From assembly GCA_963718875.1 (NCBI GenBank), contig OY970378.1, positions 477,373 to 541,372 on the forward strand: a stretch of DNA of 64,000 bases, read 5' to 3'. The notes beneath the pieces were generated by a model. That model made no database searches, was not told the origin of the DNA, and saw only the letters and a list, made by a program, of their open reading frames with translations. Of this stretch, positions 2,088-54,037 are shown one piece after another (position 1 is the stretch's first letter; the number at the start of each line of letters is the position of its first letter). Made by a program: the position numbers and the translations under genes. This DNA is from Candidatus Parcubacteria bacterium (GTDB lineage: Bacteria; Patescibacteriota; Saccharimonadia; UBA4664; JBIOIQ01).

Positions 2088-2130
2088 TTGATAATTACGA
2101 TTGACATAATTATCAAAATGCTCTTATAAT
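2088..2130 (+). promoter_or_regulatory. near-consensus sigma70 promoter (TTGACA-N18-TATAAT) overlapped by a perfect 10-bp palindrome TTGATAATTA-N9-TAATTATCAA
   Basis: TTGACA at 2101-2106 and TATAAT at 2125-2130. Palindrome arms at 2088-2097 and 2107-2116. Confidence 0.6.
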
Positions 2131-2136
2131 CAGCCT

Positions 2137-2842
2137 AACCAGGTGAGGTGATCTGGTAGTCCGCAACTCGGCGGATGATTTGACTGTGGGGGTAGCTACG
2201 TGCAGTGCAGATCCAGTAAGGCTGTGATTTTAAGGCGAGCGTCCGTCAGGATCATACGACTTAGAGAGGAGCTTGATGCTATCCGGCGTGCGATTCGGGA
2301 TGTTCACCCTGGTCTCAAGATGGAAGATCTGGAGGGAATGAGTGGCAGTGAGCTACTTGAGCTTTGCGCTCTGGGCTTGATGGGTGAGCCCAGTTCACTC
2401 CGAACGGTTTATCCGGGTTGCGACCAGGAGGACTTTTCGATCACAGCTACTCGGCTCGCATGACCGCTCGCAGGGGTGGCCTTGTGCTGGTGCGAGTTGA
2501 AGGAGCGAAGGGCATTGGTTTCACGTTCCGAACCCTTGTTCCTGGCATCTGCCCGACCGACCGCATCAAGCCGGTGAGTGCACCGAGCGGGAAGCAGAAG
2601 TGGCGGCCGTGAAAGGTCAAGTCACGCTCCAGCAGGTGCGAGATCTCAGGGAAGGGCTGGTGGCGGCACTTGAGGCTGCCTTTCCAGGTTCGATGTTCTG
2701 CCACCTTTCCCTCAAAGAGCTCGCTCTTCTGGAATACGGGGACATTGACTGGCATCAGTACGTTTCCAGTCCATAAAGCATCAACGGATGCAGTCCCGCC
2801 ACCCCTGGGCTACCAAGCTCGGGGGTGGCGGGTTTCGCTTTT
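2137..2842 (+). other. GC-rich (~60%) transcription unit with four serially overlapping small ORFs (21, 41, 50 and 55 aa); either a small-ORF operon or a frameshifted foreign pseudogene
   Basis: AGAGGAG precedes an ATG at 2276 (21 aa, frame 2). ATGA overlap at 2338 starts a 41-aa ORF (frame 1). ATGA overlap at 2460 starts a 50-aa ORF (frame 3). GTGA overlap at 2609 starts a 55-aa ORF (frame 2). An intrinsic terminator closes the unit at 2795-2842. Confidence 0.4.
2795..2842 (+). terminator. rho-independent terminator (11-bp GC stem cccgccacccc/ggggtggcggg followed by a T-run)
   Basis: Perfect inverted repeat followed by TTTCGCTTTT. Confidence 0.7.
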
Positions 2843-2861: not shown

Positions 2862-3212
2862 ATGAATGATTGTTTATTTTGTTCGATTGCCAATGGCGAT
2901 GTTGAAAAGTTGGTGTGGAGTAATGATGTGGCAGCGGCTTTTAATGATATTAACCCCAAGGCACCTGTACACATCCTGGTGGTGCCCAAGCAACATATTG
3001 AAAATCTCGATGAACTAGACGATCCGGGGCTCGCCGGTAAGCTTTTGATGGCAGTAAGGGAAGTGGCCGTGCAGGCGGGGGTAAAAGGGGCGTATCGCGT
3101 GCATTTGAATAACGGAGAAGCGGCTGGACAGGTTATTCCGCATCTGCATTGGCATATATTGGCGAGAAGTTCTGTAAATGAGTTGGATAAATTACGGGAT
3201 CAAGGGTTGTAA
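2862..3212 (+). CDS. HIT (histidine triad) family protein
   Basis: HLHWHIL histidine-triad motif. The N-terminus MNDCLFCSIANGD is typical of Hint proteins. Confidence 0.85.
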   Translation: MNDCLFCSIANGDVEKLVWSNDVAAAFNDINPKAPVHILVVPKQHIENLDELDDPGLAGKLLMAVREVAVQAGVKGAYRVHLNNGEAAGQVIPHLHWHILARSSVNELDKLRDQGL

Positions 3213-3232: not shown

Positions 3233-3261
3233 TTGACCTTATGTGGATTCTAGCTTAGTAT
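3233..3261 (+). promoter_or_regulatory. sigma70-like promoter TTGACC-N17-TAGTAT
   Basis: Hexamers with 17-nt spacing, immediately upstream of a GC-rich non-coding block. Confidence 0.5.
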
Positions 3262-3267
3262 ATTTCT

Positions 3268-3606
3268 TGCTTTACAACTCAACCGAACCAGGGGGTCTTC
3301 GCTGTGTCAGGCAGAATCGACCGGCCAAGAAGCGGCAAGCATGCGGCGCACGATTCTACGAGGCATTACCGCAACTGGAGAGCTCTTCCCGATCAGGGTT
3401 CGGAAGCATCGACAGCTTCTGAGCTACAGAGTGGAGGTTCTTCGTCAACACCGGCGGTCCGTATTGACCGGAGGCGGTCTCTGAGCGCACTTCTGTCACC
3501 GCAACAGCTTCGTCGGCTTTCGTCGTAACCAACAACAGCCTGGGTTCTCGAGCTTTTGCCACCTGGCCTGCACGAAGTTGTGTGGGTCAGGTGGCTGTTC
3601 TTTTTT
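3268..3606 (+). ncRNA. candidate structured ncRNA (~340 nt; class undetermined, RNase P RNA/tmRNA/SRP-like not confirmed)
   Basis: A promoter lies at 3233-3261. The block is ~57% GC in an AT-rich intergenic region. Its only ORF is a low-complexity R/S-rich 74-codon frame. The 3' end carries an 8-bp stem (gccacctg/caggtggc) plus TTCTTTTTT. Confidence 0.35.
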
Positions 3607-10335: not shown

Positions 10336-10411
10336 GGGGACTAGGTGTCTGGGCTATGACACGTCTTGCATTATCGGTGCAAGGAAGGAGGTTCAAATCC
10401 TCAAGTCTCCA
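10336..10411 (+). tRNA. tRNA-like element (non-canonical; possible pseudo-tRNA or integration-site remnant)
   Basis: 7-bp acceptor pairing (GGGGACU/AGUCUCC). T-arm GGAGG-TTCAAAT-CCTC. D-arm GUGU/ACAC. Anticodon arm with a 7-nt loop UUAUCGG. Three extra nucleotides between the D and anticodon arms, and no encoded CCA. Confidence 0.35.
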
Positions 10412-16860: not shown

Positions 16861-16888
16861 AGTTAAGGCTCAAATATTGGATTGCTAC

Positions 16889-16917
16889 TTGAAATATTTA
16901 TAATCAACACATATAAT
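16889..16917 (+). promoter_or_regulatory. sigma70 promoter TTGAAA-N17-TATAAT
   Basis: Hexamers at 16889-16894 and 16912-16917. Confidence 0.55.
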
Positions 16918-16953
16918 GGTGGTACCGTCAATCAAGCCTTAGGAGGCCGACGA

Positions 16954-17499
16954 ATGCTCAAGAGACCCCTTATCACGCGTCCGATTGAGGATGTTGTCGC
17001 GGACATCCTCGATCTCGATCTCGGACCGATCAGGTTCACGCTCGTTCGTCGAGGCTGGACCGGAGGTCTGGCTGACCGCTTCATCACGGAGTACCGCCGC
17101 CTTCTTGAGCTGATGGTGCGGTTTCCAGATGATGTCATCGTCCCTTCGGAGGACGTGGATACCGTCTGGCACACCCACATCCTCGACACGGCCAGGTACC
17201 GCGATGACTGCATGCGGATCTTCGGCTTCTTCCTCGACCATTTCCCGTATTTGGGCACGCGTGGATCTGACGACGAGGATGAACTTCGTCGGCTGTACAC
17301 CCGATCGCGGGAGCTGTATGAGCAGACGTTCGGCCATCGGACGGTGTCTACGGCATCGGCCTGCTCCGCGTTCGGAGCTGGGAATGGAGATGTACCCGTT
17401 CCAGCTCTGGTTGGAGCAGCCACAGTGGCGTATTGTGGCGGGGGTGGCGGAAAGCCGTCGTCTGCTCCTAGCTACCACCAAGGTGGTAGCTGTGGCTGA
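16954..17499 (+). CDS. GC-rich (~62%) foreign gene: glycine-rich-domain (GRDP/DUF1399-like) protein with a Gly/Cys-rich tail
   Basis: AGGAGG Shine-Dalgarno. Motif DTVWHTHILDTARYRDDCMRIFGFFLDHFPY. GC3-rich codon usage unlike neighbouring genes. A hairpin lies at 17515-17548. Confidence 0.6.
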   Translation: MLKRPLITRPIEDVVADILDLDLGPIRFTLVRRGWTGGLADRFITEYRRLLELMVRFPDDVIVPSEDVDTVWHTHILDTARYRDDCMRIFGFFLDHFPYLGTRGSDDEDELRRLYTRSRELYEQTFGHRTVSTASACSAFGAGNGDVPVPALVGAATVAYCGGGGGKPSSAPSYHQGGSCG

Positions 17500-17628
17500 G
17501 GGTCTTGAAGTAAGGTTGATGGTGGCGGTTACGGCCGCCACCATCAACTTGATACAAATGTTTATGAAGTTAGCTCGTTCGCACCATAACCGGTAATCTG
17601 GTACAATCTACTCTAGAAACGAGGGATT

Positions 17629-41237: not shown

Positions 41238-41315
41238 ACTTGTGAAGACACTTTTTTTGCGCTAAATTAAAGCCAGCGCCGGACCAGCCGTCGCCTGTTT
41301 CGTGGAGGATGAATC

Positions 41316-41723
41316 TTGAGCCCACTTGAGGTTGCCGCTCTGAAGAGCCTGAATAAGGCTCGCAGAGCATGGGGATTGCCTTCGTGGCCGGCGCTGGTTC
41401 CGGCTACACCGTCCGACCCCTGTGGATGCGAGTTCTGGAAGGGGCTGGTCGACGGAGACCCATTGGTCTCGGTCGGAGCAGATCACATCATTGCTGGCCG
41501 AGATGCTGCTCGAGTCATCTATGCCGCCTTTGGCAGACTTGATGACGAGGGGAGAAGATGGGAGGTTCTGAGGGGAGATCTGGTCAAGATCAGGATGAGA
41601 GATACTCTCGCGAGCTTCGTGGAGGCCTTCGACGAGCGCCGTTTTCCTCATCTCATCGACGACGAGGCGGACGAGGCGTACCGGGTTAAGAGGGCGGCCG
41701 AGCAGACATTGGTTTCTGCCTAA
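41316..41723 (+). CDS. GC-rich (~62%) orphan hypothetical protein (135 aa), foreign-looking
   Basis: GGAGG Shine-Dalgarno with a TTG start. GC3-rich, protein-like frame. Followed by a 15-bp perfect hairpin at 41737-41778. Confidence 0.5.
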   Translation: MSPLEVAALKSLNKARRAWGLPSWPALVPATPSDPCGCEFWKGLVDGDPLVSVGADHIIAGRDAARVIYAAFGRLDDEGRRWEVLRGDLVKIRMRDTLASFVEAFDERRFPHLIDDEADEAYRVKRAAEQTLVSA

Positions 41724-41736
41724 TTGCTGCGCAACA

Positions 41737-41778
41737 TGATCCACCGTCGGTGGGGGGTTATCCCTCCACCGACGGTGG
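41737..41778 (+). terminator. 15-bp perfect inverted repeat hairpin (ATCCACCGTCGGTGG...CCACCGACGGTGGAT)
   Basis: Seen directly; GC-rich stem without a strong T-run. Confidence 0.5.
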
Positions 41779-51300: not shown

Positions 51301-51512
51301 ACAAATCTAATACAAAATACTTGCTTCGCATTAACCTGCAAGCAGTTATTGTTTCGTTAACTAGGGGAGACCTATGATGTTAGCGAAACGTTATCTGCTT
51401 GCATGAAACTGTGCAAGCGAGGATTCGACACTTAGTCGAATTCAGTTGCTCTACCGAACATACAGAAACCACAGACCAGGGTGAGAACTCTGGCAGAGCA
51501 AAGGAAAAGACC

Positions 51513-52448
51513 ATGTCCGACCAGACCGGAGGACCCGGTACCACCGCCCCACCCCGCCGACCCACGCTCCAGGAGCTCGCCGACCAGGCGAGAGCCACGA
51601 TCGAGGAGCAGGCTCGACAGGCGAATGACCTCCAGGGTCAGCGCTCCGCCATCAACGCGATCAGCGGTCGAGTGGCGCAGCACGACGACGCCATCGCTGA
51701 CCTCCGGGACGCTTCGGCCCAGCAGGCCGACGCCGTGGACCGCCTCGGCCAGCGCACGCTGGTGGTCGAGGGACGCACGGACTCGTTGGAGGACTTGGCT
51801 CGCGCCAACGCCGCCGGCGTGGCCGGGCTGACCGCCAACATGGCTGACCTGACCACCAACGTCAACACGCTGGCCACCACGGTGGGCCAGCACGACACCC
51901 GTCTCGACGCCGTCGAGGACGCCGTGACGCCGGCCGCTATGCGGACGGTCGTCACCGAGGTGGTCGAGGAGCGCATGCGCGCTGTTCGGTTCAACTGGGT
52001 GGCCTTCGCCGTGGTGGCGATCGTGGGCTTCATCATCGACCTGTTGGTGTTCTCCGAGATGGGGAGCTTCAACAGCGCCGAGGCGCCGAAGCTCTCCAAG
52101 CACCTCACGGACGTCATGCACACGCAGAACTTCCTGGCCGTCATGCTCGTTGTCCTGGCCCTCGCCATACTCATCGCCCTCATCGTTCCGGTGGTCGGGC
52201 AGGACGAGCGTCCCAGGCAGGACCGCCAGCCCAGGCCGCCTCGGCAGCCCGGATCCGGCGGTGGTTTCATGGCCGGTCTTCGCAACGTTTGGAGGAGGGG
52301 TCGCGGTACGCCCGCTGCCACTGCGCCCATCCCGGCCAACTCCACGCCGGTGGCGACGACGAACCCGTCGGCCTCGTCCAACGCGCCCACTCAGGTGCTG
52401 CCGGCGGTGCCGACGTCCGGTCCGACGCCCTCATCGGGCAACCCGTAG
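51513..52448 (+). CDS. GC-rich (~68%) foreign gene: coiled-coil membrane protein with two TM helices and a Pro/Ser/Thr-rich tail
   Basis: AGGAAAAG precedes the ATG. GC3 ~90%. Ala/Asp-rich heptad-like N-terminal region, then two hydrophobic helices. The overlapping antisense ORFs are GC-shadow ORFs. Confidence 0.6.
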   Translation: MSDQTGGPGTTAPPRRPTLQELADQARATIEEQARQANDLQGQRSAINAISGRVAQHDDAIADLRDASAQQADAVDRLGQRTLVVEGRTDSLEDLARANAAGVAGLTANMADLTTNVNTLATTVGQHDTRLDAVEDAVTPAAMRTVVTEVVEERMRAVRFNWVAFAVVAIVGFIIDLLVFSEMGSFNSAEAPKLSKHLTDVMHTQNFLAVMLVVLALAILIALIVPVVGQDERPRQDRQPRPPRQPGSGGGFMAGLRNVWRRGRGTPAATAPIPANSTPVATTNPSASSNAPTQVLPAVPTSGPTPSSGNP

Positions 52449-52518
52449 TCCACGCGGTTCTTCAAGTGGATTGTCCCAATTCAAATACCTCCTAGCGTCA
52501 AGCAAAGAGGGAACAACC

Positions 52519-52549
52519 CTCTGTCCGCCCTTCGGGGCGGACAGAGGAG
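52519..52549 (+). terminator. 13-bp perfect hairpin (cctctgtccgccc-ttcg-gggcggacagagg)
   Basis: Seen directly, between the two island genes. Confidence 0.55.
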
Positions 52550-52647
52550 CAACTTTTACTTCCATGGATAGTAGTCCGCGTGAGAAGCAATTCTTACTCG
52601 GTTTCTGTTCATGGTGCAATCGGCACCCAAACGATAAGGAGGGTGCC

Positions 52648-53826
52648 ATGAGCACCAGAAGAGGTCCTGTTCTGATCATCGTGTGTCTGCTGATGGCAGC
52701 GGGGGCTTTGCTGTTCAAGTACGGCAACGGCCCAACGCCGGCAGTGGCACAGACGCCGCCCACGGTGCCCGTTTCGGACGTCTGCAAGGACGTCCCGGGC
52801 AACGTGCCGAGGTGGTTTGCCAAGGAGACCGACGGCAACAAGTTCGGTCCGGCGGCTCCGTTTGACCTTGGTCCCGCCAGGAAGGCTCAGCACGAGGTCC
52901 TGTGCCTCGACCCGGCCAACCTGGTGATCACCCAGGAGACCATCGACGGGAAGTTCAGCAGTCCGGCAAACCGGGCTGCCCGGACTCGCGTTCTCGTTGC
53001 CAACCCCACTGCGCGGTTGGCAGCGGTGGCCTATGTGCAGGCAGAGTTGGCCAAGGCCAAGGAGGTTCGGCTGGAGGTCCACACGGGACCCTACCAGACC
53101 TTCTACATGACCACCGACGGCGACGTGCCGGAGGTGTTCCAGTCTGCAGGGAGCTTCACCGAGGCACGGCACGTTCTCGTGTACGACTTCGGTAACGGTC
53201 GCACGGTCAACTTCGTACTGGAGTGCAACTTCCAGGGGGAGTTCCCCGGGCCGGTCAAGAACGTGCCGGTGGCAACGCCGGGCACTGTGCCGGCGCTGGT
53301 TCAGCCGGGGCCCACCAGCCCGCCGCCGACGACGTGCCAGTCGACCAACACCTGTTCGACCGTGACCAGCCCACCGCCCGTGTGCTGCGGACCGCCCCCG
53401 ACGACGTGTCAGGTCAACTGCGGTCCGCCCCCGACGACGTGTCAGGTCAACTGCGGTCCGCCGCCGACGACGTGTCAGGTCAACTGCGGTCCGCCGCCGA
53501 CGACGTGTCAGGTCAACTGCGGTCCGCCGCCGACCGTTTGCACACACAAGTGCGCGGGAGAGGACGTTGCGGTCAGTCCGAGTCTGGATCCTGTCGTTTC
53601 GGGACTGGCTGCGGGCAATGCCGCACCCACTGCGGTGGCAACACCGGTCGTGACGGCGCCTCCGGCGCCGCCTCCGCCCGTGACCACAGCCACGCCACCC
53701 GTGACGGCTCTGCCGTCCTCCGATGGCGTGGCAGCTCCACCGCCTGTAGTGGCTCCACCGTACGTGGCGCCCGATGCGGGCACTCCGTCCAACCCGACGA
53801 CGGGAACCATTCCGCCGCCGCCGTAG
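52648..53826 (+). CDS. GC-rich foreign gene: secreted/membrane-anchored protein with five CGPPPTTCQVN Cys-containing tandem repeats and a Pro-rich tail
   Basis: AAGGAGGG Shine-Dalgarno precedes the ATG at 52648. N-terminal hydrophobic signal/anchor. Repeats of 33 bp at 53386-53553. Confidence 0.6.
   Translation: MSTRRGPVLIIVCLLMAAGALLFKYGNGPTPAVAQTPPTVPVSDVCKDVPGNVPRWFAKETDGNKFGPAAPFDLGPARKAQHEVLCLDPANLVITQETIDGKFSSPANRAARTRVLVANPTARLAAVAYVQAELAKAKEVRLEVHTGPYQTFYMTTDGDVPEVFQSAGSFTEARHVLVYDFGNGRTVNFVLECNFQGEFPGPVKNVPVATPGTVPALVQPGPTSPPPTTCQSTNTCSTVTSPPPVCCGPPPTTCQVNCGPPPTTCQVNCGPPPTTCQVNCGPPPTTCQVNCGPPPTVCTHKCAGEDVAVSPSLDPVVSGLAAGNAAPTAVATPVVTAPPAPPPPVTTATPPVTALPSSDGVAAPPPVVAPPYVAPDAGTPSNPTTGTIPPPP
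53386..53553 (+). repeat. 33-bp tandem repeat x5 (ggtccgcc[c/g]ccgacgacgtgtcaggtcaactgc) encoding GPPPTTCQVNC
   Basis: Four near-identical copies plus one degenerate copy, seen directly. Confidence 0.85.
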
Positions 53827-54037
53827 GACACCACTTCTGCCCATTCGGGCAGGGGTCTACCCCAGGGTCTGGGGTGGTGCGCAAGCGCCACCCCGCCCTG
53901 TGGGTATACATATTCTTAATGATTTTGGATTATTCGATTGCTCCAAGGGTTAGTGCCCTTTAACATTTAGCGTCCAACTTAACTTGTAGATCATATTAAA
54001 TTCATTTTAACGTTCATTATTTAAAAGGAGAGCACAT

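Follow-up and report, generated by a model that had tools for sequence, protein, structure and literature searches.

A GC-rich chain of three overlapping small genes upstream of HIT in Saccharimonadia, a likely lineage-specific small-protein operon

Introduction

Coupled operons, for example the trp and ribosomal-protein operons, have ATGA or TGATG junctions between their genes, and NTGA overlaps together with downstream genes poor in Shine-Dalgarno (SD) sequences are the classical arrangement for coupling by termination and reinitiation. Anti-CRISPR/Aca operons combine a very strong promoter, which carries an inverted-repeat operator, with tiny, hypervariable orphan proteins. Here, we analyze a GC-rich unit at positions 2088–2842 of a 64-kb stretch of Candidatus Saccharimonadia (TM7, candidate phyla radiation) DNA (contig OY970378.1, 64,000 nt; hereafter the window). 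The window is ~46% GC and carries housekeeping genes, nearly all on the plus strand; within it, the unit is flanked on its 5′ side by mem85, which encodes an 85-aa membrane protein (1791–2048), and on its 3′ side by a HIT-family gene (2862–3212). We read the unit as an operon of three small genes (g1, g2, and g3) that is probably functional, translated, and specific to this lineage.

The unit resembles the trp and ribosomal-protein operons in that its downstream genes are SD-less and start on the upstream stop codon; it differs in that its products are orphan proteins of 50–87 aa and in that its coupling is read from the sequence alone. With anti-CRISPR/Aca operons it shares a perfect promoter with a dyad on the –35 element and small, fast-diverging proteins without homologs. 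Unlike those operons, however, it holds no recognizable helix-turn-helix (HTH) repressor gene, and it is chromosomal, vertically inherited, and embedded in housekeeping synteny, with no relatives in 50,697 phage records (tblastn) or 2.9 million viral contigs. The unit also resembles toxin-antitoxin operons (type II and tripartite), which have two or three small genes overlapping by 4 nt, a strong promoter on a dyad, very basic and acidic small proteins, fast evolution, and a patchy presence within a conserved neighborhood. By contrast, searches of the unit proteins against Pfam, NCBIfam, and PADLOC returned no toxin or antitoxin family, Foldseek against PDB was empty, the candidate 'toxin' is only 50 aa, and the locus has been passed down at a single fixed site and is not scattered. 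Overlapping small genes behind a promoter with a palindromic operator are present here but are not specific to toxin-antitoxin systems, and we did not file the unit as one because the defining domains are absent.

At the RNA level, 5′-terminal hairpins and STAB-SD sequences are listed among the 5′ stabilizers of mRNA (Agaisse and Lereclus, 1996, as listed in PMC7509114), as is a block of RNase J1 by the ribosome (PMC5737220). Similar to STAB-SD, the unit has a hairpin at its predicted 5′ end that contains GAGGUGAUC with no start codon behind it, and this hairpin is kept in three units; the 5′ end of the unit is a predicted one, and the likeness is one of sequence.

Results

The unit reads as a chain of three genes rather than four

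A first-pass annotation of the window had listed four serially overlapping ORFs (open reading frames) of 21, 41, 50, and 55 codons, in frames 2, 1, 3, and 2, with ATGA, ATGA, and GTGA junctions. All four ORFs and junctions exist as described, but they make up three genes because codon usage rejects the 21-codon ORF (2276–2341, plus strand, frame 2; P = 0.92) and supports an 87-codon ORF in frame 1 (P = 0.025). The 21-codon ORF lies off-frame inside the latter and was judged a non-gene, and the 41-codon ORF (2338–2463, plus strand, frame 1) is the C-terminal part of the 87-codon gene. The resulting chain, all on the plus strand, consists of g1 (2200–2463, 87 aa, GTG start, frame 1), g2 (2460–2612, 50 aa, frame 3), whose ATG lies on the g1 stop codon (ATGA), and g3 (2609–2776, 55 aa, frame 2), whose GTG lies on the g2 stop codon (GTGA). 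An SD-like GGGGG run (2188–2192, plus strand) stands 7 nt before the GTG of g1, with a predicted anti-SD duplex of –9.8 kcal/mol. The g2 start has no SD (–1.7 kcal/mol), and that of g3 has a weak one (–4.4 kcal/mol). The g1 protein has a basic N-terminal and an acidic C-terminal half, g2 is very basic (net charge +8, isoelectric point [pI] 11.7), and g3 is acidic (net charge –3, pI 5.0). Single-sequence AlphaFold models gave a mean predicted local distance difference test (pLDDT) score of 74 for g1, with a long helix at residues 6–35 scoring above 90, and of 84.5 for g3, for which all five models scored 79–84. A paralogy between g1 and g3, suspected by eye, was dropped (z = 0.5), and internal repeats were looked for in the unit and none were found.

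Units of the same layout recur at one position in related genomes

The first-pass annotation had pointed to related genomes as a place to look for the unit, and the same layout is there at the same position, in the slot between mem85/Band_7 and HIT. Syntenic loci were retrieved via the anchors Band_7, rpsU, and especially mem85 (35 homologs). Eight Saccharimonadia genomes, that of the window included, carry a GC-rich unit of one to four small genes directly upstream of HIT, and every unit with more than one gene has 4-nt gene overlaps. We refer to these loci by number and to two types of unit. The W-type comprises the window unit (87 + 50 + 55 aa), L173/L174 (95 + 51 + 56 aa, joined at ATGA and ATGA), L001 (97 + 51 aa, ATGA), L167 (a single 96-aa gene), and L183 (74 + 124 aa, GTGA), the cargo genes of which are unrelated to those of the window. 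The gB-type comprises L162 (identical in L161 and L163), with genes gA to gD of 94, 98, 87, and 90 aa and three 4-nt overlaps, L165, with gA to gD of ~80, 98, 83, and 90 aa and three 4-nt overlaps, and L179, with a single 93-aa gene. An HTH suspected in L183 g1 was not supported by Pfam.

In six of the eight units, an SD-like sequence precedes the first gene (anti-SD duplex, –7 to –13 kcal/mol), and the GGGGG-N4-7-GTG arrangement before g1 is also present in L173 and L001. Duplexes at the overlapped genes of W-type units range from –1.7 to –2.2 kcal/mol for g2 and from –4.4 to –4.9 kcal/mol for g3. From this arrangement, we infer translational coupling of g1, g2, and g3.

The window and L173 units align end to end, with identities of 63–83% over the promoter and leader, 67% at junction 1, and ~60% at the terminator; identity in the interior is at baseline (30–40%). 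The g1/g2 junction CGGCTCGCATGACC is identical in the two. The size and charge of the downstream proteins are also kept: g2 has 50–51 aa, a net charge of +7 to +8, and a pI of 11.4–11.7 in all three units that have it (L173 and L001: 51 aa, +7, pI 11.4–11.5), and g3 has 55–56 aa, a net charge of –3 to –5, and a pI of 4.6–5.0 in both units that have it (L173: 56 aa, –5, pI 4.6).

Chance overlaps and chance codon usage are poor explanations of the chain

The first-pass annotation held that precise overlaps at every junction would be unexpected by chance, and this was borne out. In 2000 dinucleotide shuffles of the unit, we counted chains of three or more ORFs, each 40 codons or longer, that were joined by start/stop overlaps; a chain like that of the window arose in 0.7% of the shuffles (P = 0.007). 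The corresponding P values were 0.0045 for L173, 0.0125 for L162, 0.008 for L165, and 0.117 for the two-gene L001 unit. We trained a codon model on genes of the relatives alone, left stop codons out of every model, and calibrated it against chance ORFs in shuffled sequence. In their annotated frames, g1 ranked in the top 2.5% of chance ORFs, g2 in the top 4.3%, and g3 in the top 2.3% (P = 0.025, 0.043, and 0.023), and our own Fisher combination of the three tests is ~0.002. Both the N- and the C-terminal half of g1 are coding-like (P = 0.016 and 0.041). Among the relatives, L162 and L165 are the closest informative pair, and they differ mostly at third codon positions, with many synonymous changes (differences at positions 1/2/3: gB 24/16/45, gC 33/24/46, gD 23/21/34). 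Protein similarity between L173 and L001 was significant for both g1 and g2 (z = 4.8 and 3.4, respectively; 0 of 500 shuffles).

The g1 protein could, moreover, be linked to proteins of the other type of unit. We defined a gB family from L162 gB, L165 gB, and the 93-aa protein of L179, and compared g1 with its three members in a single pre-specified test. The summed local score had a z of 5.8 (empirical P = 0.0002); singly, the members gave P = 0.001, 0.0025, and 0.024, with collinear alignments over residues 3–68, and controls (off-frame translations, g2, and g3) gave z scores of –1.2 to 1.0. All four proteins have 87–98 aa, an N-terminal half with a charge of +3 to +9, a C-terminal half with a charge of –4 to –6, and a unit directly upstream of HIT. 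We place g1 in the gB family as a divergent member; gB is a small helical family that forms the shared core in half of the related units. A relationship between the gB profile and a profile of L173-type g1 proteins was dropped, as there was no match, and an 'SxxELLxL' motif that g1 of the window seemed by eye to share with g1 of L173, L001, and L167 failed statistics and was dropped as well.

Evolution of the g1, g2, and g3 proteins is very rapid, and none of them has known relatives beyond the clade. Pfam, NCBIfam, PADLOC, PHROGs, PDB profiles, and Foldseek against PDB gave no match for the unit proteins of the window or of the relatives. A mobile or phage origin was considered and rejected: the promoter-leader motif is absent from the 2.9 million viral contigs, tblastn against the 50,697 phage records found no match, and neither did PHROGs or PADLOC. 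Our literature search on GC-rich small-gene islands in Saccharibacteria found nothing pertinent.

Base composition sets the units apart from their surroundings. The predicted transcript (2137–2842), described in the first-pass annotation as ~60% GC, is clearly GC-rich, at 57.4% overall against 45.9% for the window; 60–61% is reached only at peaks within 2400–2750. In all eight genomes, the unit genes exceed the flanking housekeeping genes by 10–16 points in GC and by 11–23 points in GC at third codon positions (GC3). The offset tracks each genome's own GC, which speaks for a bias that has persisted over a long residence and against a recent import. Unit proteins contain 12.3% Arg and 3.8% Lys, versus 5.8% and 7.1% in host proteins. 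Selection for mRNA structure is a possible cause of the GC excess.

A perfect promoter, a dyad, and a strong terminator bound the unit

The near-consensus promoter reported in the first-pass annotation proved to be a perfect one. On the plus strand at 2101–2130, a sigma-70-type –35 TTGACA (2101–2106) is followed by an 18-nt spacer and a –10 TATAAT (2125–2130), a match at 12 of 12 hexamer positions, and only one other perfect promoter exists in the 64-kb window. Identical hexamers and spacing are found in L001, L173/L174, and L167, and all eight units have a promoter of the form TTGACA-N4-T[GA]NCA[ACG]...TAnnAT. The exact promoter-plus-leader motif is confined to the window, L001, and L173/L174.

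A candidate operator (2088–2116, plus strand) overlaps this promoter. It had been described as a perfect 10-bp palindrome; the inverted arms, TTGATAATTA (2088–2097) and TAATTATCAA (2107–2116), are indeed perfect over 10 bp, but they are not contiguous: 9 bp, the –35 element included, lie between them. Perfect inverted repeats of at least 10 bp occur at ~14 places in the window, this one among them, and are mostly terminators. An inner dyad around the –35 reads TTGACA-TAAT-TATCAA (2101–2116), and a dyad of the form TTGACA-N4-TRKCAN, with the –35 as its left half, is present in all five W-type units at four to six of six matches each. Four of six matches at the same offset were reached by only 7% of the 717 TTGACA sites in the sequence set of the analysis, which makes the shared dyad statistically unusual; the five dyads are not independent observations, since the promoters are related by descent. 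The clearest operator-like dyad among the W-type units is that of L183 (L183:950–965), where a perfect 16-bp palindrome, TTGACAATATTGTCAA, has the –35 as its left half. A repressor site at the –35 dyad is a plausible prediction.

At the predicted transcript start lies a 5′-proximal hairpin (2138–2157, plus strand; stem ACCAGGU/AUCUGGU, loop GAGGUG), the loop and 3′ arm of which spell the SD-like GAGGUGAUC, and fold prediction places a second hairpin at 2159–2176 (plus strand). L173 and L001 keep the first of these, one A-U pair being changed to G-U, and the other five units have a predicted hairpin at a comparable position, a few nucleotides after the –10. By analogy with known 5′ stabilizers, the hairpin may act as an mRNA stabilizer.

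The unit ends, as the first-pass annotation had it, at a strong intrinsic terminator (2795–2842, plus strand), formed by a 17-bp stem with 13 G-C pairs (2795–2832) and a 4-nt loop, then the U-run UUUCGCUUUU. Its flanks, GTCCCGCC...GGTTTCGCTTTT, are common to the window and L173, and a strong terminator stands immediately before HIT in all eight units. It starts 19 nt past the g3 stop codon in the window, ~25 nt past it in L173, and ~45 nt past the stop codon of the last gene in L001. Were the unit an attenuator of HIT, its 'leader' would consist of three genes of 50–87 codons.

HIT itself starts only ~20 nt past the terminator (2843–2864 in the window) and lacks an SD. In every relative, a TATAAT-like box is found 6–8 nt before the HIT ATG (L173:6262–6281, L162:7985–8004, L165:3142–3161, and L179:1902–1921); the version in the window is TATTAT. 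Because such a box stands near the ATG and no SD does, these sequences suggest a leaderless HIT mRNA whose promoter would be packed against the unit terminator.

Alternative readings of the unit

Several points, here and among the alternatives below, weigh against a functional three-gene operon. The case for g1, g2, and g3 is sequence- and model-based throughout, the per-gene codon tests are modest (P = 0.02–0.04), and long ORFs arise readily in GC-rich DNA. No similarity was detectable between g2 and g3 of the window and those of L173 and L001 (z = –0.6 to 1.7; tblastx in any frame), nor did g1 of the window match a profile of g1 from L173, L001, and L167. Lastly, hhalign of g1 to the gB profile was only marginal (P = 0.0067, hhalign probability 6%).

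The main rival for the window copy is a recent relic, that is, a copy derived from a real operon like that of L173 or L162 which is no longer selected for its proteins. Its ORFs would then be open only because decay is recent and stop codons are few in GC-rich DNA, and g2 and g3 are indeed unlike their positional counterparts. Identity between the window and L173 in the flanks (HIT 70%, mem85 64%) matches the closeness of L173 and L001, a pair that retains similarity in its unit proteins, and a shared TTCGAYCAC near junction 1 is read in different frames in the window and in L173. Decay does not sit well, however, with an intact three-gene chain that chance rarely produces (P = 0.007), family-like codon usage in all three annotated frames, the conserved size and charge of g2 and g3, an almost full-length alignment of g1 with the gB family, and a promoter, an SD, and a terminator that are all intact. 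On balance, we regard a relic as unlikely.

We consider it improbable that the four-ORF version of the first-pass annotation holds, with a 21-codon leader that uses an SD of its own and passes ribosomes to the 41-codon ORF and then to g2 and g3. ATG 2276 does have a fair SD (GAGGAG, duplex –8.3 kcal/mol), and ATG 2338 stands behind GGAGG (duplex –8.7 kcal/mol) and overlaps the preceding stop codon as ATGA. Nevertheless, the 21-codon ORF scores as an off-frame read (codon margin –0.24), frame-1 DNA upstream of 2338 scores as coding (P = 0.016), and both the gB alignment (residues 3–68) and the confident AlphaFold helix (residues 6–35) take in parts of g1 that precede 2338. Such a leader ORF has no counterpart in any of the relatives.

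Still less probable is a structured non-coding RNA of ~0.7 kb in which the ORFs are incidental to GC-rich sequence. In its favor, the unit is a GC-rich island with its own promoter and terminator in an AT-richer genome, and it folds very stably: against shuffles, the z score is –5.4 with the terminator and –2.9 without it, and without terminators L173 and L001 reach –6.0 and –4.3. Stable folding does not point to a non-coding RNA, though, because GC-rich islands that include a protein gene fold alike; a recognized GC-rich protein gene elsewhere in the window has a z score of –4.9, and ordinary genes range from –0.2 to –2.0. Rfam had no match anywhere in the 64 kb at gathering score, and on the unit at E values up to 10 the best match (E = 0.11) was that of the terminator hairpin to a microRNA model. 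Between the window and L173, the interior is at baseline identity while ORF layout, lengths, and charges are kept, and L162 and L165 show a codon-position bias in their substitutions, neither of which fits an RNA.

A single foreign gene of ~190 aa carrying two frameshifts, or an assembly error that makes them, had been put forward in the first-pass annotation and is barely credible. The three frame segments do tile the unit gap-free, but the reading fails the check named there, as no protein aligns across them: the concatenated three-frame protein has no homolog, whole or by segment, among 5.8 billion proteins, and an exhaustive HMMER search of 1.84 billion cluster representatives returned nothing beyond the 87-aa ORF of the window itself and a single marginal, repetitive match at an artificial junction. 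Also, tblastx against the relatives' units found no cross-frame homology, and independent assemblies of the relatives keep separate genes with the same overlaps. A recoding cassette, also proposed there, is unsupported because the unit has no slippery heptamer (X XXY YYZ; 2137–2794 searched), and all three frame changes are plain NTGA start/stop overlaps.

The surroundings of the unit and other elements of the window

The local gene order is HisRS, Band_7, mem85, the unit, HIT, a second GC-rich unit, rpsU, yqeY, ybeY, dgkA, adk, and map. In the intergenic region between Band_7 and mem85, a perfect 11-bp inverted repeat (1704–1733; TTTGACGCTAA / TTAGCGTCAAA, 7-nt spacer) occurs without a following T-run. 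The slot between mem85/Band_7 and HIT is variable, and distant relatives carry a transglycosylase or MarR-type gene, or have no HIT. A minus-strand lytic-transglycosylase (SLT) gene occupies it in L083, L086, L089, L095, L096, L104, L161–L165, and L179, accompanied by a MarR-like gene in L095 and L096; in L081 and L169–L172, mem85 is directly followed by rpsU, without HIT. The mem85/Band_7–rpsU region is thus a hotspot of gene turnover in the clade.

The second GC-rich unit (3233–3605, ~57% GC) stands alone between HIT and rpsU, with a promoter-like TTGACC-N17-TAGTAT (3233–3261) and a 17-bp terminator (3558–3595). It has no sequence similarity to the first unit and no Pfam match. A 47-aa ORF (3341–3484) has family-like codon usage (+0.13), and a longer 74-aa ORF (3304–3528) does not (–0.27). 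At the same position, L165 has a coding-like 96-aa gene (L165:3572–3862), and L001 has none.

Further GC-rich islands lie elsewhere in the window. The largest (51350–54000) is 2.6 kb long and 65–72% GC in a 46% GC genome; it contains a strongly coding-like ORF (51399–52448, 349 aa, GC3 0.83), other long ORFs that overlap on both strands, and a 33-nt tandem repeat of 4.5 copies that are 98% identical (53385–53534), and it gave no significant Pfam matches. Two more islands are 58–60% GC. That at 16882–17600 has a promoter-like TTGAAA-N17-TATAAT (16889–16917) and encodes a protein with a GRDP-like domain (PF07173, E = 2.6 × 10–5), the mRNA of which folds with a z score of –4.9; that at 41260–41750 has a coding-like 135-aa ORF (41316–41723) with no Pfam match. 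Lastly, ARAGORN called a tRNA-Asp at 10336–10411; its anticodon (ATC) is unusual, its acceptor stem has 7 bp, and its T-loop is good. Against the Rfam tRNA model it scored 22.9 bits, short of the gathering score (29). The element overlaps a 135-aa ORF, and syntenic loci of the relatives contain no tRNA; it is probably tRNA-like and degenerate.

Discussion

The first-pass annotation had offered a translationally coupled small-protein operon as one explanation of this locus. A stand-alone unit of overlapping genes that recurs in relatives agrees with that proposal, and the number of genes is corrected from four to three. If the three-gene operon works as its sequence implies, a very strong sigma-70 promoter would yield a ~700-nt, GC-rich, stably folded transcript, running from the 5′ hairpin to the intrinsic terminator, and the dyad around the –35 could bind a repressor. 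Ribosomes would load at the G-rich SD before g1, and translation of g2 and g3 would follow by termination and reinitiation where the genes overlap (ATGA and GTGA), so the three products would be made in similar amounts. The charge-complementary pair of g2 and g3 probably acts as a complex. Our best guess is that the unit forms a module that regulates itself, of either the toxin-antitoxin or the regulator kind.

A broader and far more speculative possibility, which we think doubtful, is that, in this clade, the slot before HIT serves as a conserved platform for high expression (dyad promoter, 5′ stabilizer hairpin, and terminator) whose tiny GC-rich cargo proteins are under diversifying selection or are repeatedly replaced. 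If that were true, these obligate episymbionts would carry in the slot a new class of factors for conflict or host interaction, such as an undescribed toxin/neutralizer module or effectors against high-GC actinobacterial hosts, and the persistent GC excess of 10–16 points would be functional.

The mechanics of expression proposed here (promoter, coupling, and terminator) are textbook. What an odd string of frame-hopping mini-ORFs would amount to is a real, lineage-conserved operon rather than a broken gene or an assembly artefact, and three unannotated small proteins, one of them in a new family, would be added for a group of poorly understood, ultra-small symbiotic bacteria. Two features may deserve attention: an expression scaffold that is conserved around protein sequences diverging beyond recognition between genera, and unit genes that lie 10–16 points of GC above their neighbors in every genome examined. 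Should the products turn out to be a toxin/neutralizer pair or host-directed factors, they may provide a handle on the interaction of Saccharibacteria with their hosts or phages.

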